The translations under genes and the position numbers were made by a program. DNA of 64,000 nt from Candidatus Woesebacteria bacterium GW2011_GWB1_39_10 (GTDB taxonomy: Bacteria > Patescibacteriota > Microgenomatia > UBA8517): NCBI GenBank assembly GCA_000993205.1, contig LBVU01000002.1, positions 28,250 to 92,249 on the forward strand. The letters run 5' to 3'. The notes under the pieces were generated by a model. The model saw nothing but the letters and a program-made list of their open reading frames with translations, was not told the DNA's origin and did no database searches. Positions 9,466 to 60,849 of the stretch are shown here, piece after piece; position 1 is the stretch's first letter; the number at the start of each line of letters is the position of its first letter.

Positions 9466-9781
9466 AGCAGTGAAGTAGTTAAGTTGAGTGGTAAATAGAG
9501 ACGAGGCGGTTGGTGCAAGACCTCGCAAGCTCAAATTAATGAATTACCCTGCAGAGCCGGTTCGACAAAATCGAGCCCGGGAGTGCCCGTAAACGCACTA
9601 GAGTCTGTTGGAAATCAAAGGACTTGAATAATGAGGGTTATCTCATAATTTCTAGTCCCGCGGAGCCTAAAGGCGAAGTGGGATTTTTTGTTGAGATAAC
9701 TAAAGAAGGGTGGTAACGCCTTTAAAGGGCCCCTTCAGTTTCTGAGATTTTGTCTCGGGAATTGGAGGGGCTTTTTTGTTT
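9466..9781 (+). promoter_or_regulatory. Candidate T-box riboswitch leader: Stem I with specifier loop, stem IIA/B-like pseudoknot, stem III, T-box sequence, antiterminator/terminator.
   Basis: Stem I pairs GCAG 9467-70 with CUGC 9549-52, UUGAG 9484-88 with CUCAA 9530-34, and CGAGG/CCUCG at the apex. The internal loop has AGUA on the 5' side and GAA on the 3' side. An AGAGA element lies at 9497-9501. An F-box-like CCGUAAA lies at 9587-93 inside a pseudoknot-capable CGGG AGUGC CCG UAAAC GCACU. Stem III pairs GUUAUCUC 9637-44 with GAGAUAAC 9693-9700. The T-box-like sequence AGAAGGGUGGUAACGCC at 9704-9720 forms an antiterminator (AAGGG/CCCUU with a 7-nt UGGUAAC bulge). That antiterminator is mutually exclusive with the terminator GCCCCUUC 9729-36 / GGAGGGGC 9764-71 plus U6 9772-77. 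SD GGGGGTG and the ATG at 9803 follow. Confidence 0.5.
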
Positions 9782-9802
9782 TCCCAAAAGGGGGTGATAA
9801 AC

Positions 9803-10876
9803 ATGAATAAAGAAATATTACGCGAACAATTGATAAATCTTGAGACGCGAAATGCCGGAATGAAAATTCTTAACCCGGGAGACTTAACGTCCGAAAAAAC
9901 TGCAGACAATGTCATTAAGTTATTAAAAGCGATGTATGTTGAACATGGTATTACCAAAGATAAGAAAAAACTAGTAAAGGATATTGAAGTCGGAAACGTT
10001 TTAAGTTGGTTTGCCCAAAAAGACGAAAATTTTGTCGCAACAGCTTCTCTTGTAAAACAAGACGATGGCGCTTGGGAGCTCGGTAGAGCAGTATCGCTTG
10101 ATCGCGGCAATGGACTAGGCAAAAGGGTAATTCTTGAAGCCTTAAAATTTCATCTAAAAAATCATTCTAATGAGGCGTTAATTGCTGAAGTTCGCGCCGC
10201 AGACGAATTCAAGCAAGTTCCGTCCGGACTTGCAACTCAAAAGATATTTTTTGGTACTATCAACTCGATTTTGCCAATTACACCCTTTGCAATTGCTCCG
10301 TTATTTGCGCACGGGGATCCACTAAGAAATGAGCAATTTATTCTTTCGGCAAGTGATATAAAGCCGGGAAAAACTATCAGTGAAAAAATTTCTGACTCTA
10401 TTAACAATAGGTCAACCAAGGGAACTATTCCAAGGTTACAGGTGATACAAACTGCTCCTTTTCGTCTGGCGATTCCTAATGATAACGGAAAAAAAGCTAG
10501 TCAAGTAGCATCAGAGTCCGTTGATTTTAAAGGTTGCTCACTATTTCCGGTAGAAGTTACAGACCGAAACATGCCGTTAATTGGTATGTTGTCTTCGAGA
10601 TCTGACATGGTTTTGTGTGGAGTTGACCGTCTATTGGGTAATGAAGGGAAACCGGTAGTATTAATCGCCACATTAGGTTTCCACGGCAATATTTTGACTG
10701 GTCAGTCATCAGAGTTGGCGCCCACTGAAGTTTCTGAAGTGCTTCCGACTGAAATGCGGAAAGACACACAAGCAATTGCTGATAAATTTTCGCATATACG
10801 CGAAGCGCAACTAAACGAGTTTAGAGATGGACTGCACCCTTATTTCCGTACAGACATAATTAAGTTATCACTTTAA
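9803..10876 (+). CDS. Hypothetical protein with a GNAT-like motif; its last ~14 codons are encoded by the left end of the IS3-family element.
   Basis: SD GGGGGTG lies 6 nt upstream of ATG 9803; the ORF track extends to 9776. The N-terminal region carries RGNGLGKRVILEAL, which resembles GNAT motif A. Coding runs into the IS left inverted repeat (10833..). Confidence 0.5.
   Translation: MNKEILREQLINLETRNAGMKILNPGDLTSEKTADNVIKLLKAMYVEHGITKDKKKLVKDIEVGNVLSWFAQKDENFVATASLVKQDDGAWELGRAVSLDRGNGLGKRVILEALKFHLKNHSNEALIAEVRAADEFKQVPSGLATQKIFFGTINSILPITPFAIAPLFAHGDPLRNEQFILSASDIKPGKTISEKISDSINNRSTKGTIPRLQVIQTAPFRLAIPNDNGKKASQVASESVDFKGCSLFPVEVTDRNMPLIGMLSSRSDMVLCGVDRLLGNEGKPVVLIATLGFHGNILTGQSSELAPTEVSEVLPTEMRKDTQAIADKFSHIREAQLNEFRDGLHPYFRTDIIKLSL
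10833..10861 (+). repeat. IS3 left terminal inverted repeat (IRL).
   Basis: It begins TG and includes the 10-nt core CGTACAGACA, which recurs inverted at 12081-12090. Confidence 0.55.
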
Positions 10877-14805: not shown

Positions 14806-16848
14806 ATGAATCTTGATTCACCGATTTCCAACCTTCCCAAAGTCGGACCGATATTCGAAAAGAAATTTGAAAGATTGGGTATTAATACCATTGAGGATCT
14901 TTTTTACCATGTTCCTTCGCGCTATCTGGACTATTCATTAATAACAACTATTAACAAACTTCGCGCGGATGAAACCGTTACCATTCACGCCAAAATTGCT
15001 TCCATCGCTAATATTTTTTCTAAAAGAGGAGTGAGAATGCAGATTGGGTCGGTTGAGGATGAAACGGGAAAATTAATGGTCGTTTGGTTTAACCAACCAT
15101 TCTTATTAAAAATGCTTTACCCGGGACGCCTTGTTTCCTTGTCGGGAAAGGTTGGATTTTTCAATAGAAAATTGTGTTTAAGTTCACCCGATTACGAAAT
15201 ATTGGATGAAGAAGGAGACCAAACTTTCCACACAGGCCGTTTTGTTCCTGTTTATCCCGAAACTTCTGGTCTTTCTTCCAAATGGCTTCGAACCAAAATC
15301 CGCGATGCGTTTGCCACCACAGAAATCGAAGAATATTTGCCGAAGGATGTGTTGACAGGGGGGGCCCTTGTCAGTCTGAAGGATGCGATACAAAAAGTGC
15401 ATTTCCCTAAAAATCTAGAGGAAGCTGAGGAGGGGAGAAAAAGATTGGCCTTTAACGAAGTCCTAAATCTCCAACTAAAAAGCTTAATCAGAAAATCAAA
15501 CTGGAAAGAAAATCGCGTCATCAATAGATTAGAAATTAACAGTTCAGTAGTTCAACAGTTTATCAGTTCATTACCTTTCAAATTAACCGAATCCCAATCT
15601 AAAGCCATGGATGAAATTCTTAAAGATTTGGGTGGAGAAATTCCCATGAATCGTTTGTTGGAAGGGGATGTGGGAAGCGGAAAAACAGTTGTCGCGGCAG
15701 TCGGGGCATTTGTGGCATTTTTAAACGGTTACCAAACATTAATAATGGCTCCCACTCAAATTTTAGCATCCCAGCATTACGAGACCCTTAATCGTCTATT
15801 TTCCAAATTCAAGCTTCGTCTCTCACTTCTAACTTCCGCAGTCAAACTTCACGATCTTGGACGAACGGATGTCTTTGTCGGTACTCATTCGTTAATTCAT
15901 AGTAAAGTTGACTTTAGTAAAGTAGCTTTTGTAGTGATTGACGAACAACACAGATTCGGCGTCGAGCAAAGAAGACATCTGGTTAAAAAAACCGGAACTC
16001 CGCATGTTTTAACAATGACCGCAACCCCCATTCCAAGAACCGTAGCCCTTACCACTTACGGTGACTTGGATTTGTCAGTCTTGACCGAAATGCCGGAAGG
16101 ACGCCAAAAAGTTACAACCTGGGTTGTTCCAGAAATCAAAAGAGATGGAGCATACGAGTGGATGAAAAAACAAATAATAAATAACAAATCTCAAATCTTT
16201 ATTGTTTGCCCTTTGATTGAAGACTCAGACACCGAAACTCTTGCAGACGTAAAATCAGTCACCTCCGAATTCTTAAATCTTAAATCTGTATTCATAAATC
16301 AAAAACTCGGCCTATTGCATGGCCGCCTCAAGTCCAAGGAAAAAGATGAGATTTTGGACAAATTCAGATCGGGTACGATCGATATTTTGGTCGCGACCCC
16401 TGTTGTTGAAGTTGGAATAGATATCCCCAACGCCACTATAATGGTAATTGAGGCTGCCGAGCGTTTTGGCCTTGCCGGGCTTCATCAGCTTCGCGGCCGA
16501 GTTGGGAGGGGATCGAAACGATCATATTGTCTAATCTTTTCAAATTACCACTCCGGGGCAGCCTACACACGATTGCGCGCGATGGAAAAGAGTTATTCCG
16601 GCTTTGAGTTGGCTGAACTGGATTTAAAGCTAAGAGGCCCCGGAGAAATCTTCGGAACTGCCCAATCAGGTTTCCCGGAGCTTAAGATCGCCTCTTGGAA
16701 CAACTTTGAGTTAATTAAGGCAACCAAAGAAGTTGCGGAGGACATCATCAAAAACCCCAAAAAATACACATTGGTTAAAACCAAATTCGAATATACTAAA
16801 AAATACGGCTGGCGTCTTTCCTACTTGAATGACGTCACTCATGTTTAA
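14806..16848 (+). CDS. recG: ATP-dependent DNA helicase RecG.
   Basis: It has a wedge-domain N-terminus, GDVGSGKT (Walker A), DEQHRFGV and TATPIPRT motifs, and is 680 aa. Confidence 0.9.
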   Translation: MNLDSPISNLPKVGPIFEKKFERLGINTIEDLFYHVPSRYLDYSLITTINKLRADETVTIHAKIASIANIFSKRGVRMQIGSVEDETGKLMVVWFNQPFLLKMLYPGRLVSLSGKVGFFNRKLCLSSPDYEILDEEGDQTFHTGRFVPVYPETSGLSSKWLRTKIRDAFATTEIEEYLPKDVLTGGALVSLKDAIQKVHFPKNLEEAEEGRKRLAFNEVLNLQLKSLIRKSNWKENRVINRLEINSSVVQQFISSLPFKLTESQSKAMDEILKDLGGEIPMNRLLEGDVGSGKTVVAAVGAFVAFLNGYQTLIMAPTQILASQHYETLNRLFSKFKLRLSLLTSAVKLHDLGRTDVFVGTHSLIHSKVDFSKVAFVVIDEQHRFGVEQRRHLVKKTGTPHVLTMTATPIPRTVALTTYGDLDLSVLTEMPEGRQKVTTWVVPEIKRDGAYEWMKKQIINNKSQIFIVCPLIEDSDTETLADVKSVTSEFLNLKSVFINQKLGLLHGRLKSKEKDEILDKFRSGTIDILVATPVVEVGIDIPNATIMVIEAAERFGLAGLHQLRGRVGRGSKRSYCLIFSNYHSGAAYTRLRAMEKSYSGFELAELDLKLRGPGEIFGTAQSGFPELKIASWNNFELIKATKEVAEDIIKNPKKYTLVKTKFEYTKKYGWRLSYLNDVTHV

Positions 16849-20106: not shown

Positions 20107-21120
20107 CTATTCCCCGCGCATAGCCAAACCAACCGCCACCGAATAAAGTGATGCGTAGGGTGCCAGGCGTTTGGCAGTATCCGGGTCAACAGCGGTTTTG
20201 ATAAAAGGATTGCCGACCAACACTTCCAGTCCCAAAAGAGAGCTTAGGGCAGAAACGATCTCGCGCATACCGCTTGTTCCACCCGAAATAATTATAGCTT
20301 TCGGAGAATCTCCCTTTTCCTCCGTCTGATAATAATTAATGGCTTTTTTGATCTCGTCTACAACCATTCTTAATACAGGGTCAAGGGCACCTTTAATTTT
20401 CCCTTCCAACTCTTTTGAAGAAAGTCCGTAAGTTTTTTTGTACTCTTCAGCCTGCGGGGCAGATATGCCAAGGCCCTGGGAAACAGCCCTCGTAAAAGCT
20501 TCTCCGGCAATTGGAATAGACCTGGAAAAACTAAGAAGACCATTTTTGACGATTGCGATATCGGTACTGGTTGCCCCAAAATCGGTAATTAAAACCGTCT
20601 TGTCAACCGGCGCAAGCGCTCGGGTTAAAGCAATCAGTTCCGTTTCAACTGCAACCGGAGTCAACCCCGCAGCCTCCACTACTTTGGTATACCTTTCAAC
20701 TACAACCTTTGGCGCCGCCACCAGTAAAACCAAAACTTCCGGGGGACTGGTTTTTTCGTTCCGCTCAAGAATAGAGTGCTGAATAACTGCTTCAGCAACA
20801 GGAATCGGAATATATTGCTCAGATTCCCATTTAATAGCAGAGGCAATTTCGGAATCGGTTAACATAGGAAACCTGATTGTTCTTGTAAATACTTGGGATT
20901 CGGGAACGGAGATAACCACATCTTTTGATGATACGCCGGCCTCATTATGAAGATGTTTAACAACAGAGCCTAAGTCGGCATATTCTTTATCATCAACCAA
21001 TTTATCCACACTATTGCCAGAATAACCGACAATTCCGGAAGCGGAAAGAGCAAATCCATTCCCCTCTTTTTGAAGTTCTACTATTTTAATTGTTTTACTT
21101 CCAATATCAAGTCCGGTCAT
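20107..21120 (-). CDS. pilM: Type IV pilus assembly ATPase-like protein PilM (actin fold).
   Basis: The N-terminus reads GLDIGSKTIKIVEL and the fold is actin/FtsA-like. It is 337 aa. Confidence 0.8.
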   Translation of the reverse strand: MTGLDIGSKTIKIVELQKEGNGFALSASGIVGYSGNSVDKLVDDKEYADLGSVVKHLHNEAGVSSKDVVISVPESQVFTRTIRFPMLTDSEIASAIKWESEQYIPIPVAEAVIQHSILERNEKTSPPEVLVLLVAAPKVVVERYTKVVEAAGLTPVAVETELIALTRALAPVDKTVLITDFGATSTDIAIVKNGLLSFSRSIPIAGEAFTRAVSQGLGISAPQAEEYKKTYGLSSKELEGKIKGALDPVLRMVVDEIKKAINYYQTEEKGDSPKAIIISGGTSGMREIVSALSSLLGLEVLVGNPFIKTAVDPDTAKRLAPYASLYSVAVGLAMRGE

Positions 21121-21153: not shown

Positions 21154-22065
21154 TTATTTTGTAATCCCGGTTGAGCTATAAATTGCAAAGTCAAAAATAG
21201 GCGGCGGTTCCGGCCAACCCTGAAAAACGCTCAAACGTCTGTTTGATTGCCCCGCAGTACCGGTTGAATCAATCTGAGATCCTTGAGAGGGAAGTACGGT
21301 ATTTCCGGGAAAATTTACGTCAAAACCAATTTTGTGGGCAACATCGGTGTTATAAAAAATTCTAAGACGCGCAAACTGTAAACCGTTTTGCTCATTGTAA
21401 GATCCGGCAGGAATACCCAATGTCGATAAATCAATTTCTCTTCCAAATTCATAAATCTCGCCTCCGATTGCGCAGGTTCCCGCATCGGGGAGGGAAAAAT
21501 TATTGGCGGGATTGCGCGCGGCAAAAGGGTCAAAAGCGGCTCTTGCAATTTTTATCGTGGCTAAATCCCCCGGGGTTGTTTCGTAAAAAACTGACAATTC
21601 AATAGCCGGTGTTGTGGCGTCGGATGCAGCTGTGCCCGGGTTTCCCCAACAAACCTTAATGGTCTGGCCGGTAAAACAAGGGCTGCCTATGCTACAAATT
21701 AAAGCGTCGTTATTTGCAGAATCATGCGCTACAAACCAGATAGTTGCGCTCCCCCCGGACGTGAGAGATAGGGGATAAACAAAATTATTTGATCCCTGGG
21801 CAACATCTGAAACGTCTGATGAATAAGTGGCAGAGCCTATGGAAACATTCGTTCCTCCCGCACCGATTACCAACGCCTTCTCAATTCCCGCCTCAGCGGC
21901 AGAAAAAGCGCGGATCGCCTCTTCGCTTCCCGATGAAACGGCAATGCCGGTTATACTTCGGGAAAGAATAAAAAGCACCAGGGTAAGTACCACCGCAAGG
22001 AAAAGGAGTACCAATACCAATGCCTGTCCGCTATCTGCTTTGTACTTTATACTTTGGACTTTCAT
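21154..22065 (-). CDS. PilX-like minor pilin / pilus-associated protein.
   Basis: The N-terminus QALVLVLLFLAVVLTLVLFIL resembles the PilX_N domain. It is the first gene of the pilMNO operon. Confidence 0.45.
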   Translation of the reverse strand: MKVQSIKYKADSGQALVLVLLFLAVVLTLVLFILSRSITGIAVSSGSEEAIRAFSAAEAGIEKALVIGAGGTNVSIGSATYSSDVSDVAQGSNNFVYPLSLTSGGSATIWFVAHDSANNDALICSIGSPCFTGQTIKVCWGNPGTAASDATTPAIELSVFYETTPGDLATIKIARAAFDPFAARNPANNFSLPDAGTCAIGGEIYEFGREIDLSTLGIPAGSYNEQNGLQFARLRIFYNTDVAHKIGFDVNFPGNTVLPSQGSQIDSTGTAGQSNRRLSVFQGWPEPPPIFDFAIYSSTGITK

Positions 22066-31598: not shown

Positions 31599-33440
31599 AT
31601 GGAGATCCTCCATCCTTCATTTTCTCCCGAATTGGCGGCGCCCACCCGTCTGGAAGATTTAGTAGCCAAGGAACCATTTCTTCAAAAAGCCTGGGATGTC
31701 GCCGAAACTGCTCATGCAGGCCAAACCAGGAAAGACGGGAAAACTCCGTATTTCACTCATTGTATAGGTGTAGCCAGAATCATGTACGAAGAGTGGGGGA
31801 TTACCGATCCGGAAAAACTTTCCGTTGGCCTTCTTCACGATACGATTGAGGATACCGATTTAACTCTCGATAACATCCGAACAGTTTTCGGTGAAGAAGT
31901 GGCCTTCGGTGTTGAAAGTGTTACCCAATTCAGCCCCGAAAATGAAGCAAAATTAATTAAAGCTGAGGCTGATTTTGAAAGCGCCAAAAAAGTTTTTGCA
32001 AAAACTTTGATTGACCCGATCGTTGCGATCTACAAACTTGCCGACAGACTTTACAACATGAGAGATATGGCTGCAATAACACCACAAAAACGCACGGAGA
32101 ACGGAATTACGTCCCTGAACTATTTTGCCCCTCTTGCAGAATCTCTTGGAATGTGGGTTGTTAAAAGGGAGTTGGAAAATTTATCACTCCAATATACAGA
32201 TTCAAAAAAATTTGAAATTTATTCAGGTTTGATGGAAAAGGACCCACGCACAAACGAGCATTTTATCGCCTACATGACATCATTTTTAACCGAAAAATTA
32301 AAAGATGAAGGTACCGAATGTAAAGTATCCTATCGAAAAAACAGTCTTGTAAAAATAATGGACAAGGCAAAAAACAATTTATTTAAAGATATTGACGATG
32401 TTATCAGTTTCCGTGTAACTGTTAGTTCAAAGGATGAAAGGAGCATTAGAAACGAATGCATGAAAGCGCTTGGTGTTATTTGGGAAGAGTTTGGGGGTAC
32501 TGAGGATCAAAAAAGATTTGACAATTTTTATTTTGTACCCAGAGACAATGGCTATAGCGCTTTTCAGGTAACTTTAAATCTGCCCGAAGGGGCAATAAAA
32601 ATCGCTATAACGTCAAAGGAAAAGGAAGATTACAACAATTGGGGTGTTCTAAGTTCACTTAAGAAGGGTAAAACGGACCTAAAAAAGTATGCTCTTAAGC
32701 TGGTCTTTACGCCAATGGGGGAGGTTAAATTCTTTCCTCCAAGCGCCAATGGATTCGATTATGCCTATCACATTGACGAAAAACTAGGCGCGCAAGCGAT
32801 GGAAATGTTAGTCAACGGGCAACGGCAAGATCTTGCAACAATTATTCCAAACGGAGCGGTTGTAAAAATCCTGGGAGGAGAGGAAAGAATTGCGCCGGAC
32901 GCCGGAGTGGTCCACCATGTATTACCCAAAACAAAACAAAAAATCGATCGGCAGTTTTTGGAGCTTGAAATGACTGAACAACAAAAAAGTGGGCGCGAAA
33001 TTGTTACAAAAATAATTTCCCAAAGAGGACTCTTAAATTTGTACGATATCTTGAGATTAAAGGAATACTCCAGAATAATTATGGATATTCTGGACCAGCT
33101 CGGAAGTAAGGGTTCTTTAACCAGACTTTATCAATCGATTGGCTCAGGAGTGGTCAGTGAGAAAGATTTAATCTCAGAACTGGATAGAAACGGAATAACT
33201 AAAGAGGCTATGGGTTTTACTTCAGTTCTTATTGAAGGGCCGGATGGACCCGGGCGGCTGAACTTCTTCACCTCAACGGTCGAAAAACTCGGGGGGAACA
33301 TTCGCAGGAACTATGGTGAAAGCGCTAAACAAATTTTTACTCAACACTTCGTTATTGAAAATTTAAATGAGGGGGCCGAGAAAAAGTTGGGGGAATTGCT
33401 TAAAAAAGATCCAAGAATAGCCAAGGTAATCGTTGTTTAA
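31599..33440 (+). CDS. RelA/SpoT-homologue (p)ppGpp hydrolase/synthetase.
   Basis: Its HD domain carries HAGQTRKDGKTPYFTHCIGVA...LLHDTIEDT. The synthetase-like region (DVISFRVTV...NGYSAFQVTL) has substitutions at the conserved Gly and His. Confidence 0.65.
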   Translation: MEILHPSFSPELAAPTRLEDLVAKEPFLQKAWDVAETAHAGQTRKDGKTPYFTHCIGVARIMYEEWGITDPEKLSVGLLHDTIEDTDLTLDNIRTVFGEEVAFGVESVTQFSPENEAKLIKAEADFESAKKVFAKTLIDPIVAIYKLADRLYNMRDMAAITPQKRTENGITSLNYFAPLAESLGMWVVKRELENLSLQYTDSKKFEIYSGLMEKDPRTNEHFIAYMTSFLTEKLKDEGTECKVSYRKNSLVKIMDKAKNNLFKDIDDVISFRVTVSSKDERSIRNECMKALGVIWEEFGGTEDQKRFDNFYFVPRDNGYSAFQVTLNLPEGAIKIAITSKEKEDYNNWGVLSSLKKGKTDLKKYALKLVFTPMGEVKFFPPSANGFDYAYHIDEKLGAQAMEMLVNGQRQDLATIIPNGAVVKILGGEERIAPDAGVVHHVLPKTKQKIDRQFLELEMTEQQKSGREIVTKIISQRGLLNLYDILRLKEYSRIIMDILDQLGSKGSLTRLYQSIGSGVVSEKDLISELDRNGITKEAMGFTSVLIEGPDGPGRLNFFTSTVEKLGGNIRRNYGESAKQIFTQHFVIENLNEGAEKKLGELLKKDPRIAKVIVV

Positions 33441-33448
33441 ATTAAAAA

Positions 33449-34009
33449 TTAATAACTTCTCAGAAGAATTTGTGAATTCGATGATAATGTTGTGTCTTGA
33501 ATACCGCCTCCAATAACACTCCGCATTTCAAGAAAAACATTGACTGATGGTGGATTCGCCGAAGCGCCTTTTTGACAGATAAAACTGCATGATGTGACTA
33601 TTACATCATCTGACGTAAGCCTACCCGAACCCGAAGCCACATGAGCGTCGGCGCCGCCAATATTCACGCATGAAAAAGAAGTAGCATCTCCTTGTTGGTC
33701 GGTATAATTTAAAATGTGAGAATCCGGATTAGTGACACAGTCGGGAATCGAATTCGCATTTCTAATCTGGCGTTCTATAACGCTCATCGCATAATTAAGA
33801 TTTTCACCCACTTTGACTTGACTCTCGCTTTTCCTACCTCCCCGCAAAGATAGGGCAATTGATCCGGTAACAATAATTCCCAAAAAAGCAAAAATCGCCA
33901 CAACAATCAATATTTCTAAAAGACTCATCCCGCGAATCAGTTCCTGTTTGGACTTAGTTGTAAATTGTAAATTGTAAATTGTAAATTTTTTCATCACCTC
34001 TGTCTCCAA
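33449..34009 (-). CDS. Type IV pilin-like protein (prepilin).
   Basis: It has a class III signal ...ELIRG|MSLLEILIVVAIFAFL. A 27-aa leader contains a perfect (ATTTACA)x4 repeat. The likely start is the inner Met at 33994. Confidence 0.6.
   Translation of the reverse strand: METEVMKKFTIYNLQFTTKSKQELIRGMSLLEILIVVAIFAFLGIIVTGSIALSLRGGRKSESQVKVGENLNYAMSVIERQIRNANSIPDCVTNPDSHILNYTDQQGDATSFSCVNIGGADAHVASGSGRLTSDDVIVTSCSFICQKGASANPPSVNVFLEMRSVIGGGIQDTTLSSNSQILLRSY
33960..33987. repeat. Perfect heptanucleotide tandem repeat (GTAAATT)x4 inside the leader-coding region of the pilin gene.
   Basis: The sequence gtaaatt gtaaatt gtaaatt gtaaatt encodes KFTIYNLQFTT on the minus strand. Confidence 0.9.
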
Positions 34010-34446
34010 TCGGAAAAGTTTGTTGTACTTCTAACTTCATGTATTCCCTGAGAATCTTGCCATGTGACGACAATGTCTGCTTCAATTAGGGTTTTTGTGT
34101 TAACAGTCGTTATATTAAAATTGACCTGCCTTTTGAATAAAGTGTCGGAAATTTCATCACCACCGATACAGGCCCTCTGTAAATTCCACGAAAGTTCGAC
34201 AAGACACCAAACTCCTGATTGAGCTTTAATGATAAACCCATCCATATCGCTGTCTCTCTGACCTCTAAGCCATTCTGTCGCTTGTTGAGCATAAATGGCC
34301 GCCTGATTGCTATTTTTAGAATAAGTCGAATTTCTTATAGAACTTGCAACCAGCGAAACAATTCCGGTAATAATAAGGGCGGAAATGGCCAGCGCAATAA
34401 CTATCTCAAACATTGATTGCCCTAAATTTTTTTCTTTACTGATCAT
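33994..34446 (-). CDS. Pseudopilin-like protein.
   Basis: It has N-terminal KNLG|QSMFEIVIALAISALIITG, a prepilin-like site with Glu at +5. Confidence 0.5.
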   Translation of the reverse strand: MISKEKNLGQSMFEIVIALAISALIITGIVSLVASSIRNSTYSKNSNQAAIYAQQATEWLRGQRDSDMDGFIIKAQSGVWCLVELSWNLQRACIGGDEISDTLFKRQVNFNITTVNTKTLIEADIVVTWQDSQGIHEVRSTTNFSDWRQR

Positions 34447-34447
34447 T

Positions 34448-34957
34448 TTACTTGATTTCGCCCGATGAACTAACGATTACGTCCAATGTATTATTTATTC
34501 CAACTTGGCTAATGGTAACTACTGCTGTCGCTCCGCTCACGAGATTTGTACCATGACCCAATACTTTGAACTCAATCGGGTTCGGAGAAGGCGTTGAAAG
34601 TATAATTCCGTCCGGCATGTTGACAGTTTTAACCGTAACCGGCCCTCCGCTACAATTGGCGGCGACAAGATACTGCGATGAACTACTTACAGTGAATGTG
34701 AAGCCGCTCAAATTATTTGGCGGGTCGCATTTTGCGTCTATTGGTTTTTGTCCGGACAGAGCCTGCTCCTGCGCCAGTCTCAAGTCTCCCACAACAAGTT
34801 TCCCAACCCCGCCAACTGCCTGACGCCTCGAAAAATCTCTAAAACTGGTAAATCCAAAGCCAAAAAGCATTCCAATAATCGTTAAGCCCACCAGAATTTC
34901 AATCAGGGTATATGCCGAAGTATTTTGTATATTGTATTTAGTATATTGGGCAGACAT
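34448..34957 (-). CDS. Type IV pilin-like protein.
   Basis: It has NTSA|YTLIEILVGLTIIGMLFGF, with Ala at -1 and Glu at +5. Confidence 0.5.
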   Translation of the reverse strand: MSAQYTKYNIQNTSAYTLIEILVGLTIIGMLFGFGFTSFRDFSRRQAVGGVGKLVVGDLRLAQEQALSGQKPIDAKCDPPNNLSGFTFTVSSSSQYLVAANCSGGPVTVKTVNMPDGIILSTPSPNPIEFKVLGHGTNLVSGATAVVTISQVGINNTLDVIVSSSGEIK

Positions 34958-34970
34958 TTGATTGGGCTAT

Positions 34971-34996
34971 ATACAATATACTACATACTACATACC
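34971..34996. repeat. ATACTAC-type heptamer tandem repeat (~3.5 units) directly upstream of the pilin gene start at 34957.
   Basis: The sequence is atacaat atactac atactac atacc. Confidence 0.7.
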
Positions 34997-35001
34997 CGAG
35001 C

Positions 35002-35559
35002 CTAGGGGTTTGTTACTTTATAGTTGCAGGTAGACGTCCCACACGAGGAGCTTTCTTCACAAGTAACTGTGGTTCCTCCTTGCTCCAGAGCGGCGCATAA
35101 TTCGTAAGCTGTTCCGTCTGCCGAATAATATTTATAATCGTTGTTAGGAGAGATTGGATCAACGGGGACACTGGAAAGATAAATATTTGAATCTAAACAA
35201 GAAGTAGTAGAAGTTCCATCGCCTTTGAGTACAGAACCCAAAGACAACGGATATTTATTGCAATCAGCTTTATATATTTCAACGGCGCTTCTTATCTGTT
35301 CCAAATCCGCCTTTCTTCTTGAATCGCGGGCAGATTGCCTGGCGCCCTGAAGACCAAAAACAGAAAGTCCGATCAGGATTCCGATTATGGAAATCGTTAC
35401 CAATAGCTCAATCAGCGTGAAGCCCGAATTTGTAATTTGAAATTTGCTTGCACTCGCTTGACGTGTGTAATTTGAAATTTTCATTATAGTGGGCATACTC
35501 CTCCCACGGGCAAACTCCAACTTGCTACCGTAATCGTTCCAACTTTTCCACCTGAACAA
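35002..35559 (-). CDS. Type IV pilin-like protein.
   Basis: It has ...QITNSG|FTLIELLVTISIIGILIGL. The leader coding contains a 15-nt direct repeat AAATTTCAAATTACA x2. The likely start is 35496 or 35484. Confidence 0.65.
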   Translation of the reverse strand: MFRWKSWNDYGSKLEFARGRSMPTIMKISNYTRQASASKFQITNSGFTLIELLVTISIIGILIGLSVFGLQGARQSARDSRRKADLEQIRSAVEIYKADCNKYPLSLGSVLKGDGTSTTSCLDSNIYLSSVPVDPISPNNDYKYYSADGTAYELCAALEQGGTTVTCEESSSCGTSTCNYKVTNP

Positions 35560-36035
35560 ATAATCCAGTAATTATCCGAGCTCTCCAACTTGTCCCATAA
35601 AACATATTGAATTCCCAAAGCTGTCCCGTCTGATACGGTACCATCCGATTGATATTTGTATACATAGAAACCGCTCGTATCGGTTTTGCTTGGATCCGAA
35701 GGACAACCGGTCATGGATAAATCTGAACACAGTGTGGTTGCGGCGCCTATCCCTGATGCGTCGGGGCGGGAAGGGTAGAAAGTATTATTTTTATTTGCAT
35801 AACTTTCGAGCGAACTTTGAAATTGTTTTAAATCCGATTTTCTTTGAGTATCGCGGCCTTGGCGTTGGGCGGTAGTAAAAGAAGCTAAAGATAAGGCAGC
35901 TAAAATCCCGATTATTGAAATCACCACTAGAAGCTCAATCAGTGTGAAGCCCAAATTCTTCGTTCTTCGTTCTTCGTTCATCGTTTTTATAGTCATTGTT
36001 CTATTTGAAACATCCATTTTGTTGTTGGACACCAA
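35484..36035 (-). CDS. Type IV pilin-like protein.
   Basis: It has MNEERRTKNLG|FTLIELLVVISIIGILAAL. Codons 2-8 are encoded by (AACGAAG)x3. The likely start is 35981. Confidence 0.65.
   Translation of the reverse strand: MVSNNKMDVSNRTMTIKTMNEERRTKNLGFTLIELLVVISIIGILAALSLASFTTAQRQGRDTQRKSDLKQFQSSLESYANKNNTFYPSRPDASGIGAATTLCSDLSMTGCPSDPSKTDTSGFYVYKYQSDGTVSDGTALGIQYVLWDKLESSDNYWIICSGGKVGTITVASWSLPVGGVCPL
35958..35985. repeat. Heptanucleotide tandem repeat (CTTCGTT)x3 plus one imperfect unit at the 5' end of the pilin coding sequence.
   Basis: The sequence is cttcgtt cttcgtt cttcgtt catcgtt. The imperfect unit contains the ATG on the minus strand. Confidence 0.9.
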
Positions 36036-36451: not shown

Positions 36452-36982
36452 TTATTCGGACGGTTTAGTATTACTACTGGTTATGGCAAAATTGCAATAC
36501 TTAGTGCCTCCTCCACATAGATAACCCGTCGGAGGAATAATCAAATCCGGATCCTGAGTGTTTTCAAGGTATGCAAAAAGCTGAAACTTTTGACCGTTCG
36601 GCGCGTCTGCTATACGATAATAATAATTTTGACCTGATACGGGATCTTTGGGCATTACCTTGAAATAAATTGTTTTTCCGTCCCCAAATTCCCCGGTTCC
36701 CCAAGCGCACGTAGTAGAAGTATTATACGGACAAGCCAAGATCGCCCCTCCTGAATCATCAGGATATTTCCCGTAATCAGAATAAAAAAGCTCAAGGGCG
36801 CTTGATATCTGTTTTAAATCACTCTTCCTTTGGGCATCTCTTCCTCTCGCTTGAGAATTTCTAAAAGAAACTAGAGCAATTGTAACTAAAACACCTAAAA
36901 TCGCCATTACCACAAGAAGCTCAACCAGAGTAAATCCAATTTCATAAATCTTGAATCTTGATGGAATATAATTACTTTTCAT
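36452..36982 (-). CDS. Type IV pilin-like protein.
   Basis: It has ...KIYEIG|FTLVELLVVMAILGVL. Confidence 0.7.
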   Translation of the reverse strand: MKSNYIPSRFKIYEIGFTLVELLVVMAILGVLVTIALVSFRNSQARGRDAQRKSDLKQISSALELFYSDYGKYPDDSGGAILACPYNTSTTCAWGTGEFGDGKTIYFKVMPKDPVSGQNYYYRIADAPNGQKFQLFAYLENTQDPDLIIPPTGYLCGGGTKYCNFAITSSNTKPSE

Positions 36983-38223: not shown

Positions 38224-38973
38224 TTAAAATCCTAAAAAGGATAAAAGTTTACTACCAAGTACAAAAGTTAATAAAAGTCCCGTTATTAAAAACGGTCCGA
38301 ATGCTACCCGATCCTTAAGTGCGGCACGCCCAAGCAAAATCAGTATGATTCCGGCTACTCCTCCTGTCAAGAAAGACAGAAAAAGCCATATCGGGGAAAA
38401 TTTGAGTCCAATAATAATTCCGCCCATAACTGCAAACTTAACATCCCCAAGTCCCATTCCGCGGCCTTTTGTAAATAAGTTAATTAAAAGCAAAAAAGAC
38501 GCGCTGGCAAATCCGGCGAGAAGGTCGGAGTATAGTGAATGAGTAGTAGATAGTAGAGAAAAAAATAATAAATAAAAAACCATTCCGGAAAAAGTTAAGT
38601 AATCTGGAATGATCTGATGCTCCAAATCAATTATAAAAATAAGAATTAAAATAGAAAATACAACAAGATATGTAAAAAGGGGGATATATTCAAAGGAGAA
38701 TTTTTGCCAGATTAGTAAAAAACCTAAGGCAGTTGTAATTTCAATCAGGGGATAACGCCAGGAAATATGTTTTGTACAATTTCTACATCTACCTCTCAAA
38801 AACAAAAAGGACAAAACCGGCACATTGTCATACCAGGCAATTTTGTGTTTACACTTGGGACAATAACTTCTGCCTGATACTATCGATATTCCTTTCGGAA
38901 AACGAAACGAAAAAGCGGTAAAAAAAGAACCAAAAACTAAACCTAATGCAATAAAAAGAATTTCTAAAAACAT
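38224..38973 (-). CDS. pilD: Prepilin peptidase (A24 family).
   Basis: It has an N-terminal CPKC...CRNC zinc motif and the DLEHQIIPD and GMGLGDVKF active-site regions. Confidence 0.85.
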   Translation of the reverse strand: MFLEILFIALGLVFGSFFTAFSFRFPKGISIVSGRSYCPKCKHKIAWYDNVPVLSFLFLRGRCRNCTKHISWRYPLIEITTALGFLLIWQKFSFEYIPLFTYLVVFSILILIFIIDLEHQIIPDYLTFSGMVFYLLFFSLLSTTHSLYSDLLAGFASASFLLLINLFTKGRGMGLGDVKFAVMGGIIIGLKFSPIWLFLSFLTGGVAGIILILLGRAALKDRVAFGPFLITGLLLTFVLGSKLLSFLGF

Positions 38974-38979
38974 CGGGAG

Positions 38980-39594
38980 TTAATCCGGAATACAGACGTA
39001 GCAGAGATCTGTTACCCAATTTGTATCACTTCCCGTTGTGCAGGCGCCATTGACGGCCACCGTTCCGTTCGCTTGAAATGAAAGACTGTGTACTTTGCTA
39101 GGAGTTGAGGTTGCCGCCTTGTCGCGCTCTGACTTGGAAATGGGGATAAAACAGGCATAAACACTGGCGGATGAGGTCCCGGCCTTTCCTATCATGATTT
39201 GCTTGTCAGCTGTAGCGCCGCTGACCCAATCACGGCTCAAAAATTCAGTTTTAAGTTCGTCATTGGTAATCAAAATACCAGATGTGGAACAGTCGCTTCC
39301 GCAGAGCCCAACAGCTTCACTCGAAGCCGAGAGAAACGCAAATTCTACATCCGAAGATGTTGTACAGCCAGCCGCAGCACATCCTTCCCAAGGAAACTTA
39401 CTGTGAGATGCATAATATCTTTCAACCGCTGAAATAAGTTGCCCGCCGTCTGCCTTAAACCTTGCGTCCCTTGCACGATTGCTTTGTTCAATGGGATTAA
39501 TAGCAGCAATGACAATAAGAGCGATAGCGCCAAGAAGCCCTATAACTATGAGGAGCTCAACTAACGTAAAACCTTTGGACAGATACTTTTTCAT
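38980..39594 (-). CDS. Type IV pilin and major-pilin candidate.
   Basis: It has MKKYLSKG|FTLVELLIVIGLLGAIALIV, the first position in the pilin gene run, and C-terminal Cys pairs. Confidence 0.7.
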   Translation of the reverse strand: MKKYLSKGFTLVELLIVIGLLGAIALIVIAAINPIEQSNRARDARFKADGGQLISAVERYYASHSKFPWEGCAAAGCTTSSDVEFAFLSASSEAVGLCGSDCSTSGILITNDELKTEFLSRDWVSGATADKQIMIGKAGTSSASVYACFIPISKSERDKAATSTPSKVHSLSFQANGTVAVNGACTTGSDTNWVTDLCYVCIPD

Positions 39595-40088: not shown

Positions 40089-40667
40089 ATGTATACCGAA
40101 TTTGAGGCGACATTTACAAACATTGATAAAGACGACATAAGGAATCGTCTTAAAAATGCGGGGGCAAAACTGATCCGTCCTGAATTTATGCAAAAACGTG
40201 TGGTTTTTAATCTGCCACAAGGACACGAAATCCCCGGCGGATGGTTAAGAGTCCGCGATGAAGGGGATAAAATCACAATGAGCTTAAAAATAGTAAACGG
40301 AGACAAAATTGAAGATCAAAAAGAAACACAGTTAACGGTTAACAGTTTTGACGAAGCAGCAACAATTTTGGAAACAATAGGTTGCGACAAAAAAGCGTAC
40401 CAGGAAAGCAAGCGCGAACTTTGGGAATTGGACGGAGCAGAAATCACCATCGATGAGTGGCCATTTCTAGAACCATTTGTGGAAATTGAAGGAAAGTCCG
40501 AAGAAGAAGTTAAAAATGTTTCGGAAAAGCTTAATTTTGATTATAGCAAGGCAAAGTTTTGCGCGGTGGACGTTTTATATAGTGAAAAATATGGAATAAG
40601 CCAAGACAAAATAAACAATCACACCCCCGAAATCTTATTTAACGGTCAAAATCCGTTTATAAATTAG
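40089..40667 (+). CDS. CYTH-domain protein (class IV adenylyl cyclase / triphosphate tunnel metalloenzyme-like).
   Basis: The N-terminus YTEFEATF carries an ExExK-like motif and the size is ~190 aa. The ORF-track start at 39945 is upstream of the likely Met at 40089. Confidence 0.55.
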   Translation: MYTEFEATFTNIDKDDIRNRLKNAGAKLIRPEFMQKRVVFNLPQGHEIPGGWLRVRDEGDKITMSLKIVNGDKIEDQKETQLTVNSFDEAATILETIGCDKKAYQESKRELWELDGAEITIDEWPFLEPFVEIEGKSEEEVKNVSEKLNFDYSKAKFCAVDVLYSEKYGISQDKINNHTPEILFNGQNPFIN

Positions 40668-41869
40668 AAGCTACTAGTCAAATTATAAATTGGTAAGATA
40701 ACAGCAATAACTAGAAATCCCACTCCAAGTCCCAACATTACCATTACCAACGGTTCAATTGCGGCTGTTAACCCTTTTACCTTTTCGTCGCTTTCCAGTT
40801 CAAAAATATGACTGATTTTGGTTAAAACCTCATCCATTTTTCCGGTCTCCTCACCAACCGCAATCATCTGGGAAAGCAAAAAGGGGAAGGCCTCGGGGTG
40901 TCTGGCAAAAGAAAATGCAATCGGAAACCCTTTCTCTACTTGTCTGGAAGCGTCTTTTAAAGCATCTGATATCACGCTGTTTCCCACAACCTCGCTCGTT
41001 ATGTTTAAAGCTTCCAAAATTGGAACTCCCGCCCCAACCATTAAGGATAGTGTTCTTGTAAGCTCGGTCAAAATTATTTGTTTTTGAAGGTATCCAAAAA
41101 CAGGGATTTTAAAAATAAGTTCATCAACTTTTCTTTTTCCAGTTTTTGTGCTTTTATAAAGTTTGAATAAATAGAAACCAAGGCCCGCTATTGCCAAAAC
41201 GATAAACCAATAACTAACAAAGAAATTCGAAATTCCGATTAAAATTCTTGTAGGCAAGGGAAGTGTGGCATTGAACTCAGAATAAAGCGAGGTCAATCGT
41301 GGAATAACGAATATCATCATTATAAAAGCAACTATCACCATGCCGGTTCCAATAATTGCGGGGTAAATTAAGGCGCCTTTAACCTTGCCGTTAAATTCCT
41401 GCTGCTTTTCCAAAGTATCAGCCAACCGAAGAAGTACCGCGTCCATTACCCCTCCAACTTCGCCCGATTTAACCAGAGCCAAATAAGTTCTTGAAAAAAT
41501 TTTTGGATGTTTATTCATTGCGCCGGAAAGAGATTCTCCTGCTTCAACGTCCGCCAAAATTTGCGCAACAACTTTTTGCATAGCGCCATTACTTTGAGAT
41601 CTAAGTATTAGAAGAGCTTCTGTTATAGGAAGCCCTGCACTTATCATTGTTGAAAGCTGACGGGTAAAAGTTGAAACGTCACCTGTGGTAATTCGCTCCT
41701 TAATTCTTTTTATAATGGAAAAGGGCGAATCCATTTTTGCGGAAATTGAAATAACATAAAGCCCTTTGCCGCGAACTAGTTTTGCGGCATGACTCATGTC
41801 TGCCCCTTCAACTTCGCCGGCTACCAGCCTGCCTTGTTTGTCTTTTGCTTTATAATTAAACCTCTTCAT
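40664..41869 (-). CDS. pilC: Type IV pilus platform protein PilC (GspF family).
   Basis: It has two GspF repeats (FTRQLSTMISAGLPITEAL; LTRTLSLMVGAGVPILEAL) and three TM regions. Confidence 0.85.
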   Translation of the reverse strand: MKRFNYKAKDKQGRLVAGEVEGADMSHAAKLVRGKGLYVISISAKMDSPFSIIKRIKERITTGDVSTFTRQLSTMISAGLPITEALLILRSQSNGAMQKVVAQILADVEAGESLSGAMNKHPKIFSRTYLALVKSGEVGGVMDAVLLRLADTLEKQQEFNGKVKGALIYPAIIGTGMVIVAFIMMIFVIPRLTSLYSEFNATLPLPTRILIGISNFFVSYWFIVLAIAGLGFYLFKLYKSTKTGKRKVDELIFKIPVFGYLQKQIILTELTRTLSLMVGAGVPILEALNITSEVVGNSVISDALKDASRQVEKGFPIAFSFARHPEAFPFLLSQMIAVGEETGKMDEVLTKISHIFELESDEKVKGLTAAIEPLVMVMLGLGVGFLVIAVILPIYNLTSSF

Positions 41870-41964: not shown

Positions 41965-43023
41965 CTAGACACTACGCACTAAACGCGACAATTCTTCGGG
42001 CCTAAGGGACCAGCTTTGGGCAACTTCCATAGATACTATTCCACGCCTTACCAAATCCGCCAGAGAGCGTTCAAGCGTGCTCATTCCGGCCTCCTGCGAA
42101 GTTTCCAAAATACTCTCAATCTGATGGGTCTTGCCTTCACGAATAGAAGTCTTTATGGCGGTGGTTCCCAGCATTATTTCGTAAGTTACAACGCGTCCTT
42201 TGGTTGTTGAGGGGATCAGCCTTTGGGAAAATACCGCCTCAATAACATTCGATAGCTGAAGTTTAACCTGTCCCTGCTGTTCCTCCGGAAATACATCTAC
42301 TATTCTGTCAATTGTTTGAGCGGCGCTATTTGTATGAAGTGTTGCAAAAACCAAATGCCCCGTCTCGGCAACAGTTAATGCCGCCGCGATTGTTTCATAA
42401 TCGCGCATTTCCCCAACGAGTACTACATCGGGATCCTCTCTTAATGCCGATCTGAGAGCTGTCTCCCAGGAATGAGTATCACTCTGCATTTCGCGCTGAG
42501 AGATGATCGATTTGATAGGTTTAAAAATAAACTCAATTGGATCCTCAATTGTTACAATATGAGAAGCGCGGGTTTCGTTAATTTCATCTATCATTGCTGC
42601 AAGAGTAGTTGATTTTCCGTGACCTGTTGGCCCGGTGACAAGAACCAGTCCTTGCCTTAAGGTTGTAAATGAATGAAGAATTTTGGGTAACCCCAGAGCG
42701 TCTATCTTTGGAATCGTTAAAGGTATTTGTCTAAAAGAAACAGCCGTCGTGTTTTTCTGGGTGTACGCATTAGCTCTAAATCTGGCTTTATCAGAAAACG
42801 GCAACGAAAAATCAATTTCTTTGTTTACAGTTAATCTCTCTATCTGCTCACTCGTAAGAACTTGTTTAAGAAGTCCGCCAATCGAATCCGGCGTAGAAAT
42901 ATCTGTACCCGGCGCAGCCAAAAGCTCGCCATCTATCCTTAAAGTAGGAGGAACTCCTGAAACCAAATGCAAATCGCTGGCTTTTAGATCAACTACTTGT
43001 TGTAATAATTGTTTAATATCCAT
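41965..43023 (-). CDS. pilT: Twitching-motility ATPase PilT.
   Basis: It has Walker A GPTGHGKST and the VLVGEMRD, AETGHLVFATLHT motifs. It is 352 aa. Confidence 0.85.
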   Translation of the reverse strand: MDIKQLLQQVVDLKASDLHLVSGVPPTLRIDGELLAAPGTDISTPDSIGGLLKQVLTSEQIERLTVNKEIDFSLPFSDKARFRANAYTQKNTTAVSFRQIPLTIPKIDALGLPKILHSFTTLRQGLVLVTGPTGHGKSTTLAAMIDEINETRASHIVTIEDPIEFIFKPIKSIISQREMQSDTHSWETALRSALREDPDVVLVGEMRDYETIAAALTVAETGHLVFATLHTNSAAQTIDRIVDVFPEEQQGQVKLQLSNVIEAVFSQRLIPSTTKGRVVTYEIMLGTTAIKTSIREGKTHQIESILETSQEAGMSTLERSLADLVRRGIVSMEVAQSWSLRPEELSRLVRSV

Positions 43024-43110
43024 AACTTTTAACTAAAAACTAATAATTAATATGTAATAACTTCATTCATCAGTTTTAAATTATTAATTCTAAATTATTA
43101 ATTCGTGGCG

Positions 43111-44901: not shown

Positions 44902-44973
44902 TATTACCTAAAGCGCCGTTAGTATCAAGATCCCACTTGATTAGTTGTTAGTTATTAGATATTAGTTAGTAAT

Positions 44974-48953: not shown

Positions 48954-49517
48954 TTAAATTGACAAAGTAATTAGGTTCCGTTGGGTTGTTTTATCACGGC
49001 GAAACGAAGGAAGGATTGGATCATCAAAGGTACATTTTGAGTCAATCGTTATATCTTCATTTTTAACTCCAAGCGAAACCAATTGCTGTCTTGCAACTTC
49101 ACTCAAATCCAAGAATGTACGACCACTGTTCAAGGTGACACCTTTGACGTATGACGAGAATTTGGAAGCAACGTCTTCTTTAACTTCGTAGTGTTCCGGA
49201 CAGATGTGTGGTCCGATAATGATTTTCAATTTTCCAGTTTCCATTTTCCATTGATTTTCCATTTTCTGAATTGTTTTGACGATGATTTCGTTCTCAAGTC
49301 CCCTCCACCCGGCATGAATAAGACCGATTCCTCGACCTTTTTCGTCAACTACAAAAATCGGTAAACAATCAGCAACACGAACGCCAAGAGTGACGCCGGG
49401 ATCACTTGTTATCATCGCATCGCAGTTGGGGATAGTTGTCCCAATATCTTTTTTACCAACCATAACGACATTATTTCCATGAATCTGTTGCATCAAAATA
49501 ACATCTTTCATTTTCAT
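48954..49517 (-). CDS. YfiH/PgeF (DUF152, laccase-domain) family protein.
   Basis: It has VADCLPIF and HAGWRG motifs. Confidence 0.7.
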   Translation of the reverse strand: MKMKDVILMQQIHGNNVVMVGKKDIGTTIPNCDAMITSDPGVTLGVRVADCLPIFVVDEKGRGIGLIHAGWRGLENEIIVKTIQKMENQWKMETGKLKIIIGPHICPEHYEVKEDVASKFSSYVKGVTLNSGRTFLDLSEVARQQLVSLGVKNEDITIDSKCTFDDPILPSFRRDKTTQRNLITLSI

Positions 49518-49526
49518 ATCATCCTA

Positions 49527-49556
49527 TTGTAAATCGTAAATCGTAAATTGTATAAT
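49527..49556 (+). promoter_or_regulatory. Candidate promoter for ppa: TTGTAA, an 18-nt spacer made of GTAAATC heptamer repeats, then TATAAT.
   Basis: -35 at 49527-32 and -10 at 49551-56. The ATG at 49566 lies 9 nt after the -10 box, so the transcript is leaderless or near-leaderless. Confidence 0.35.
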
Positions 49557-49565
49557 TGTCAGAAT

Positions 49566-60665: not shown

Positions 60666-60849
60666 ATCTCCCCATTGCTTCACGAATAACCTTGAGGTAA
60701 AATAATTTAAAGCTAAATAGCCTCGATTTTTTGTTTGGAACAAAAAATAAATTCGAGTTAATAAATCCGAAATACGAAACAATATTTAAATTCTAAATTT
60801 CAAATAGAAAAGTTTCGAATTTCGTGCTTCGGATTTCGTATTTAAATGT

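Follow-up and report, generated by a model that had tools for sequence, protein, structure and literature searches.

Heptanucleotide tandem repeats in the prepilin leaders of a Candidatus Woesebacteria type IV pilus operon

In this work, we analyzed a 64,000-nucleotide stretch (the window) of contig LBVU01000002.1 from Candidatus Woesebacteria bacterium GW2011_GWB1_39_10, a member of Microgenomates and of the candidate phyla radiation (CPR) that comes from Rifle aquifer groundwater, as indicated by source names and near-identical contigs. The minus strand of the window encodes a type IV pilus operon including PilB, PilT, PilC, PilD, and pilins, and tandem repeats with a 7-nt unit lie in the leader-coding part of several of its nine pilin-like genes, which stand in a row from 37560 down to 33449. 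Our preferred interpretation, held with somewhat less than even confidence, is that these arrays are heptanucleotide microsatellites of the slippage type that are kept in frame in tolerant segments of pilus genes and that act as latent switches at most. An earlier sequence-only reading of this DNA had proposed that the repeats are contingency loci that switch pilin expression by slipped-strand phase variation. The architecture is as described there, but OFF alleles, copy-number differences, and long tracts were not found.

Heptamer arrays in the pilin leaders of the window

Four repeats at pilin genes had been reported by the sequence-only reading, and all of them exist, with small coordinate corrections. 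The last pilin-like gene of the operon (33449..33994, minus strand, 181 aa) carries a perfect array at 33958..33987 (minus strand), previously given as (GTAAATT)x4 at 33960-33987, which reads (AATTTAC)x4.3 on the sense strand and (TTGTAAA)x4.3 on the plus strand and covers codons 3-12. The ATG of this gene at 33994 overlaps the upstream stop codon by one base (TGATG), and its 22-aa leader, MKKFTIYNLQFTTKSKQELIRG, is followed by MSLLEIL, with Glu at +5. Its N_methyl score of 17.1 bits falls under Pfam's cut-off of 21.2, and its homologs are annotated as prepilin-type cleavage/methylation proteins. In the type IV pilin gene 35484..35996 (minus strand, N_methyl E 4e-8), the array at 35956..35985 (minus strand) has the sense unit GAACGAA; what had been described as (CTTCGTT)x3-4 at 35958-35985 consists of 3.4 perfect copies of TTCTTCG at 35956-35979, or 4.3 copies if one mismatch is allowed. 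The protein has 170 aa from the ATG at 35996, which overlaps the upstream stop as ATGA and gives a 16-aa leader, MTIKTMNEERRTKNLG, followed by FTLIELL. Some gene callers choose a second ATG at 35981, which leads to a 165-aa protein with an 11-aa leader.

The GspH-like minor pilin gene 34448..34957 (minus strand, 169 aa, leader MSAQYTKYNIQNTSA followed by YTLIEIL) is associated with two arrays. One is intergenic (34967..34997, minus strand; GTATGTA GTATGTA GTATATT GTATATA), represents the conserved element GTATGTAGTATATTGTATATAG, and lies 10 nt upstream of the ATG at 34957. The ATACTAC repeat of about 3.5 copies reported at this place is present (34978-34995) but has only 2.6 perfect copies, and Tandem Repeats Finder (TRF) gives 4.1 imperfect copies over 34967-34995. 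The other, overlooked before, is a period-7/14 array within the leader (34920..34948, minus strand; AATATAC TAAATAC AATATAC AAAATAC). In the type IV pilin gene 35002..35484 (minus strand, 160 aa, leader MKISNYTRQASASKFQITNSG followed by FTLIELL), whose ATG overlaps the upstream stop by one base (TAATG), the leader region at 35431..35480 (minus strand) holds the 15-mer AAATTTCAAATTACA twice, at 35466-35480 and 35431-35445. This duplication is the fourth repeat previously described; its copies are 35 nt (5 x 7) apart, either copy is internally 7-periodic, and TRF reports 2.9 copies at 35427-35446. A weak two-copy heptamer, (TCAAGAT)x2.1, occupies 36947..36961 (minus strand) in the 16-aa leader of pilin 36452..36982.

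The genes in this row have the features of type IV prepilins, namely a charged leader ending in Gly/Ala, a hydrophobic helix, Glu at +5, and an N_methyl motif, and the locus also holds prepilin peptidase, assembly ATPase, and platform genes. The N_methyl model passes Pfam's cut-off for pilins 35002, 35484, 35993, 36452, and 37560; pilins 33449 and 34448 score below it, with the motif still visible. Gene callers are at odds over three of the window pilins, and most starts in the row can be fixed from the sequence because neighboring genes overlap by their stop and start codons (TGATG, ATGA, TAATG). With starts fixed by such overlaps or by a sole in-frame ATG, array-bearing leaders have 15-22 aa and those of array-free pilins in the same operon have 7-9 aa, so a large part of the added length is plausibly due to the arrays. 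The sequence-only reading had given a range of 11-27 aa for these leaders.

Some deposited alleles of these pilins are irregular. L011 (GenBank LBZO01000033.1), a deposited metagenome-assembled genome (MAG), lacks the 110 nt equivalent to window 35489-35598, so that the reading frame of pilin 35484 continues into that of 35002 and yields a 289-aa fusion with two N_methyl motifs, and L011 also lacks 32113-32210 in a RelA/SpoT-like gene. As five independent contigs stop at 35498-35596, the gap may reflect true structural variation, or a mistake made in an older assembly. On one 3382-nt ENA contig (P0003/P0004), a frameshift around codon 108 breaks the last pilin into open reading frames (ORFs) of 109 and 72 aa; the heptamer array is distant from this site, and the contig carries either a pseudogene allele or an error of assembly. 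Of the pilins that follow pilC, the first, probably the major pilin, lacks an in-frame ATG, GTG, or TTG in several species (L047:4701, L049:2580, L051:2213, L052:2611, L059:2967, L060:2776, and L068:2406). A strong GGAGGTGA with ATT, ATA, or ATC codons precedes it, pointing to a start codon other than the canonical ones.

Period specificity, placement, and turnover in relatives

We called an array when at least 4 copies were present at 80% identity or more, and in the window also at 75%. The window holds 8 period-7 arrays at 80% and 11 at 75%, while other periods from 6 to 15 give none at 80% and 0-3 over both thresholds, and shuffles give none. Perfect heptamer runs of at least 3 copies occur twice in the window and never in 30 dinucleotide shuffles. 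We then compared 54 Woesebacteria/Microgenomates pilus loci (745 kb), obtained from a genome scan with alignment of last-pilin orthologs and all picked around pilus operons. At 80% identity, these contain 59 period-7 arrays spread over 27 loci, against 5 arrays at period 6, one each at periods 8, 9, and 10, none at periods 11-16, and 0.2 in shuffles; among perfect arrays of at least 3 copies, 21 have period 7 and none has period 6 or 8-12. The 76 arrays in all comprise about 50 distinct units with a mean of 25% GC, and their copy numbers run from 4.0, the detection threshold, to 6.9, with none longer. Six outgroup loci, a small sample, had no arrays. AT-richness as the driver was rejected, as array density is uncorrelated with locus GC (rho 0.16, p 0.23).

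The lineage thus shows an excess of unrelated 7-nt tandem units at period 7 only, as expected of short tandemly repeated repetitive (STRR) sequences. That the repeats are chance low-complexity sequence or an assembly artefact has a practically negligible probability: their units are AT-rich and several arrays are imperfect, but shuffles produce nearly none, no other period is enriched, and the same arrays are found base-for-base in independent assemblies made with different assemblers and in loci from chromosome-level MAG records.

Placement is strongly biased toward pilins. In the 54 loci, a cleavage motif of the FTLIEL type, with its preceding Gly, follows 39 of the 59 arrays on the sense strand at a distance of no more than 150 nt, mostly 0-20 nt from the end of the array. 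A period-7 array accompanies 47 of 464 pilin sites, whereas the same test at lags 5, 6, 8, 9, and 10 gives 3, 1, 1, 0, and 0. Leaders hold 2.0 arrays per kb, compared with 0.25 for intergenic DNA and 0.026 for coding sequence elsewhere. Pilin leaders account for 38 of the 76 arrays, and the rest divide equally between other coding sequence (19) and intergenic DNA (19), so the mainly intergenic placement of STRRs is not seen here. In 10 of 46 relatives (L016, L028, L031, L038, L047, L051, L053, L055, L059, and L062), the PilD loop that separates the IIPD motif from GMGLGDVK contains an in-frame array, with species-specific units; these make up 10 of the 19 arrays in other coding sequence. The corresponding loop of the window (38437-38613) has only a vestigial 7-periodic stretch (TCTACTA x2). 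Leaders of last-pilin orthologs range from 4 to 34 aa, and the long ones read as translated heptamers. The ortholog in L016, which is 52% identical to the last pilin, has the same (AATTTAC)x4.

Comparison of three syntenic species, whose mature pilins are 71-89% identical, reveals leaders at corresponding positions with different units, copy numbers, and lengths, for instance (AATTTAC)4 versus (AAAATCA)4 versus about 1.7 copies, or GAACGAA-type versus ATAC-type units. The same subset of pilins carries arrays in all three. Within a species, the related units of orthologous arrays change jointly (ACAGTWA versus ACAATYA), and the alternation of units within arrays avoids in-frame stop codons. A species pair with 90% identity differs by 12 indels of more than 3 nt, 3 of which (21, 48, and 18 nt) fall in pilin leaders and preserve the frame. 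Together with the differences between species, these indels indicate that arrays turn over on an evolutionary time scale and that only frame-preserving states are seen. A comparison of copy numbers with relatives had been suggested with the sequence-only reading, and both units and copy numbers differ between species.

Frame, copy number, and predicted structures

The unit is not divisible by three, the arrays lie inside ORFs, and they go beyond what composition predicts. In silico, the gain or loss of one unit shifts the frame, as had been claimed before: changes of 1 or 2 units leave stubs of 3-23 aa, and a change of 3 units restores the frame in pilins 33449, 35484, and 34448 and in the PilX-like gene. 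By this simulation, a change of unit number would abolish the product, and a further change would restore it.

The states seen in nature are all compatible with expression. Among the 47 leader arrays, 30 have an upstream in-frame ATG, 8 contain an ATG, and 4 lie in the 5′ UTR; the remaining 5 have no ATG, 4 of them with a plausible GTG/TTG start and one, L064:7605, with only a possible ATA. No clearly OFF frame was found in the 47 leader arrays or in the 10 PilD arrays, which are all in frame, so that ON and OFF alleles do not coexist in this collection. Missing leaders in the homologs P0033 and P0047 were considered as OFF alleles and rejected, as in-frame short leaders lie upstream and the starts are gene-caller errors. 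No copy-number variants were detected in about 20, 5, and 9 assemblies of three natural populations, these being consensus assemblies in which minority variants could be missed; the second population (5 assemblies) does differ by single-nucleotide polymorphisms (SNPs), and its arrays are unchanged. At consensus level, copy number therefore does not vary within these populations or among close strains, an outcome that forms one part of what the sequence-only reading had named as speaking against its own proposal, and phase variation may still occur because consensus assemblies may hide minority variants. Leader length does not vary within the 90% protein clusters of the window pilins, and the leaderless form expected from an OFF allele is absent from a collection of 15 billion proteins. 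A variable-gap pattern across the array matches the window and 7 other loci; neither this pattern nor the downstream flank alone matched the JGI metagenome collection, which does not contain this population.

Several contigs end at both edges of the (AATTTAC)4 array: at 33959 (Logan, L004, the same contig in 4 samples), at 33987 (Logan, L095, 33.8 kb), and at 33958 (MEGAHIT, L015). We rejected these ends as evidence of length heterogeneity. L016, another Rifle species, has a 31-mer identical to window 33958-33988. Sharing of a 31-mer should break a k=31 graph at exactly 33987 and 33959, whereas a 5-copy allele should break it at 33987 and 33958. If L016 is present in those samples, the breaks would be explained by the 31-mer common to both species.

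Regarding the repeat upstream of the third pilin, the proposal that it alters promoter spacing found no support, as promoter-like sites are not enriched (16 versus 11.7 +/- 3.4 expected). A consensus scan found no promoter-like site spanning 34967-34995, with the limit that CPR promoters are uncharacterized. We also considered (TTTACAA)n as a promoter of the form TTTACA-N17-TACAAT and rejected it, since the in-register -10 hexamer is TACAAC and the scan showed no enrichment; most units (e.g., GCAAATG and GAACGAA) are not promoter-like either. No terminator was found, and the leader and upstream repeat region matched no Rfam family.

This upstream repeat rather appears to be one arm of a predicted start-codon hairpin. 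In at least 6 species, GTATGTAGTATATTGTATATAG is found before pilin genes at a distance of 0-20 nt from the ATG, and it is complementary to an ATAC-type array in the leader that follows, with a 13/14 inverted match at the third pilin of the window. The hairpin predicted there pairs a 5′ arm at 34967-34997 with a 3′ arm at 34906-34941 and exposes the start codon in a loop at 34942-34966 (minimum free energy -24.7 kcal/mol, z -2.3). Of 7 regions of this kind, 6 have a more stable predicted fold than their shuffles (z -2.0 to -5.2), and the loop again contains the ATG. Sites of GTATGTAGTATATTGTATATAG(G), which include window 34967-34995, L084:3331, 4389, and 4920, L032:2919 and 4437, L062:6795, L018:3460, and L042:4907 and 5519, stand before different pilin genes in different species, as if the element were a portable regulatory module. 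A long hairpin is also predicted upstream of gyrA (z -3.1), where heptamer arrays in inverted orientation occupy 60763-60843 (AAATCCG AAATACG ... TTTCGTG CTTCGGA TTTCGTA, the inverted array being at about 60763-60780); it ends 7 nt from the ATG. An inverted partner with at least 12 of 14 matches exists for 8 of the 76 arrays versus 3 of 76 in a control, and alignment folding of the start-codon hairpin gives 1 compensatory pair among 18. In view of these partner counts and the weak covariation, a hairpin would cover only a subset of arrays. The perfect arrays at 33958 and 35956 have no inverted partner. Two further ideas were discarded: a single sequence-specific protein or RNA binder with periodic sites, similar to HutP or TRAP, is ruled out by the roughly 50 unrelated units, and the units do not fit the X XXY YYZ pattern of programmed -1 frameshift "slippery heptamers."

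Arrays are not confined to pilins. An imperfect array (22038..22062, minus strand; AAAGTCC AAAGTAT AAAGTAC AAAG) lies in the leader of the PilX_N-like pseudopilin gene (21154..22065, minus strand), which is the first gene of an operon that continues with pilM (20107-21120, minus strand), the two genes spanning 22065-20107. An imperfect array of 5.9 copies (43022..43062, minus strand) adjoins the pilT start codon, ATTAGTT x4.1 (44940..44968) lies in the divergent pilB/holB spacer 6 nt before the holB ATG, and an imperfect array (60813..60843, plus strand) stops 7 nt short of gyrA. An array with the unit TACRATT (49526..49559), of the same family as that at 33958, lies in the spacer that separates a YfiH-like gene from an inorganic pyrophosphatase gene. 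Five of the 6 non-coding window arrays end within 10 nt of an ATG, mostly without a Shine-Dalgarno sequence. Arrays in frame occur within the YfiH-like (Cu-oxidase_4) gene (49222..49252, minus strand), where the translation is KMENQWKMETGKLKI, and, imperfectly, within recG (16165..16189, plus strand), where it is KKQIINNKSQI. The KMENQWKMETGKLKI-type peptide of the YfiH-like laccase-domain protein resembles several pilin leaders in relatives.

The remaining genes of the pilus operon, all on the minus strand, encode PilB (43111-44901), PilT (41965-43023), PilC (40664-41869), a pilin (38980-39594), and the prepilin peptidase PilD (38224-38973). An IS200/Y1-type transposase gene (59951-60628, minus strand) lies directly upstream of the gyrA spacer with the inverted arrays. 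Elsewhere in the window, a T-box leader (Rfam RF00230; 9453-9737, plus strand; 94.4 bits versus a gathering score of 93) precedes ORF 9776..10876, and a 2050-aa protein (51527-57679, plus strand) with 15 SpaA-type prealbumin-fold repeats and DUF11 is probably a giant surface adhesin; a 24-nt tandem repeat lies within its gene at 51759-51804.

Explanations, known systems, and significance

In the microsatellite reading that we tentatively prefer, AT-rich 7-nt units in 3.4 to about 7 copies most likely arise by replication slippage or tandem duplication, through a process that would be lineage-specific because only 7-nt units are favored. Arrays survive in a few segments that tolerate them: the prepilin leader, one PilD loop, and short spacers directly before start codons. 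The leader should be tolerant since PilD cuts it off, so little is needed beyond charge and the Gly before the cleavage site. Selection would keep the frame, consistent with the frame-keeping states that are the only ones seen, and leaders are thereby 2-3 times as long as the usual 7-9 aa and strongly divergent between species. Because a change of 1 or 2 units leaves only a short stub, each translated array is a latent frameshift switch; switching, if any, would be rare, with OFF cells normally selected against. A subset of arrays occurs as inverted pairs with predicted start-codon hairpins, such as the array upstream of 34957 with its leader array. Several observations weigh against this reading. 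A neutral model predicts neither the 8-fold higher density of arrays in leaders than in intergenic DNA, nor the use of the same pilin positions with different units across species, nor the retention of (AATTTAC)x4 in the distant L016 ortholog. Simple expansion fails to account for PilD loops that have mostly 58 aa with or without an array, the preference for 7 over 4, 5, or 8 nt is left without explanation, and the link to pilus genes is partly a sampling effect because of how the loci were chosen.

That the arrays are true contingency loci, a pilus "phasome" with selected, reversible slipped-strand switching of single minor pilins, is the main rival explanation, though on balance unlikely. 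PilD arrays would then stop all piliation, and subpopulations would evade pilus-specific phages or alter host attachment. A unit that is not a multiple of 3, placed in the 5′ coding part of surface-organelle genes so that 1 or 2 units truncate the product, is what this explanation expects, as is the concentration of arrays in pilin leaders and PilD. Different units at the same positions across species recall convergently evolved phase-variable genes, the recurrence of many units in many relatives is an outcome that selection for a switch could produce, and perfect arrays imply recent homogenization. By the criteria used for simple-sequence repeats (SSRs) in Haemophilus influenzae (PMC2651432), at least 3 uninterrupted heptamers make a candidate SSR. 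However, none of the leader or PilD arrays is clearly OFF, the roughly 34 assemblies of three populations (some with SNP differences) and the protein clusters yielded no length variant, and arrays reach 7 copies at most versus 13-38 in known phase-variable heptamer tracts. Similar arrays beside housekeeping genes, as well as contig breaks at 33959 and 33987 that fit the 31-mer shared with L016 instead of length heterogeneity, also speak against it. The specific version for Woesebacteria, in which leader arrays switch minor pilins and the PilD array is a master switch, both at low frequency and under phage or host pressure, we consider doubtful.

A role as cis-acting nucleic-acid elements seems improbable. 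Inverted pairs would form mRNA hairpins that control translation, processing, or stability, and single AT-rich arrays would keep the initiation region unstructured. The recurrence of GTATGTAGTATATTGTATATAG before pilin ATGs in at least 6 species, its pairing with leader arrays, the folding of 6 of 7 regions, the similar arrangement before gyrA, and the closeness of non-coding arrays to ATGs that mostly lack a Shine-Dalgarno sequence are all in line with such a role, which is better supported for inverted pairs. Against it stand the small share of arrays with an inverted partner (control 3/76), the weak covariation, the many unrelated units, which exclude a single sequence-specific binder, and the perfect arrays at 33958 and 35956, which are unpartnered and without an Rfam match. 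A more radical variant of the phasome reading is that a dedicated process may write 7-nt tandem copies into these segments without length change, as hinted by the PilD loops of constant length.

In classical translational phase variation, the Neisseria opa (CTCTT)n and pilC poly-G tracts lie in signal-peptide coding sequence. As here, a tract whose unit is not a multiple of 3 lies in the leader-coding part of a surface or pilus gene, and indels shift the frame of the mature protein. Those units have 1 or 5 nt in long tracts, and copy number and ON/OFF state differ between isolates, whereas the arrays described here have 7-nt units in 3.4-7 copies, all alleles are ON, no copy-number variation was found, and the leader is a class III (prepilin) leader instead of a Sec signal peptide. 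Phase variation of opa is listed in PMC11868660. In H. influenzae, heptamers are known as (ATCTTTC)n at hmw1A/hmw2A and as (AATTTTG)14 inside hmw1a of strain PittAA (PMC8262952, PMC2651432). The unit length and the surface adhesin gene are similar, and the PittAA tract is intragenic and associated with a frameshift; hmw tracts in general lie between two promoters, grade transcription, have 13-38 copies, and vary among strains, whereas our arrays are translated, short, and invariant in the available data. The genome of H. influenzae Rd KW20 has a size of 1.8 Mb. It holds no SSR of at least 3 uninterrupted heptamers (PMC2651432).

Cyanobacteria have heptanucleotide arrays known as STRRs; the term occurs in PMC2670836 and other papers. 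Similar to those, the Woesebacteria arrays are a lineage-specific excess of tandem heptamers in unrelated unit families, mostly near genes, sometimes inverted, and with no agreed function. Cyanobacterial STRRs are described as mostly intergenic and G+C-richer. The present arrays occur in a CPR bacterium, and half of them are translated as part of prepilin leaders. In Streptococcus gallolyticus, GCAGA repeats occur in the pil1 leader peptide (PMC3894217), where a stem-loop takes part and the number of repeats likewise determines how long the leader peptide before the pilus genes is. In that system, a separate regulatory mini-ORF controls a transcription terminator of a sortase pilus operon; the repeats described here belong to the prepilin leader of the pilin itself, and we found no terminator. 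A full-text literature search returned no paper describing such arrays in CPR bacteria, in agreement with the earlier suggestion that they had not been tied to CPR pilin leaders. The kind of element is already known, namely simple-sequence repeats in leader-coding DNA, and is found here in CPR prepilin leaders.

CPR bacteria are thought to rely on type IV pili for host attachment and DNA uptake, and to our knowledge, no way in which they regulate or vary their pili has been described. Our findings also come with a warning to annotators, as gene calls for CPR pilins are systematically wrong in start codon and leader length. If the arrays are indeed switches, no contingency-locus system would precede them in CPR/Patescibacteria, and their use of the prepilin leader would be a first for any such system. 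If they are not, the exclusive 7-nt period and the fast in-frame turnover of leaders point to an unusual mutational process in these reduced genomes. A period-specific, lineage-wide class of repeats concentrated in prepilin leaders and the prepilin peptidase offers a concrete, testable handle on the pili of CPR bacteria.

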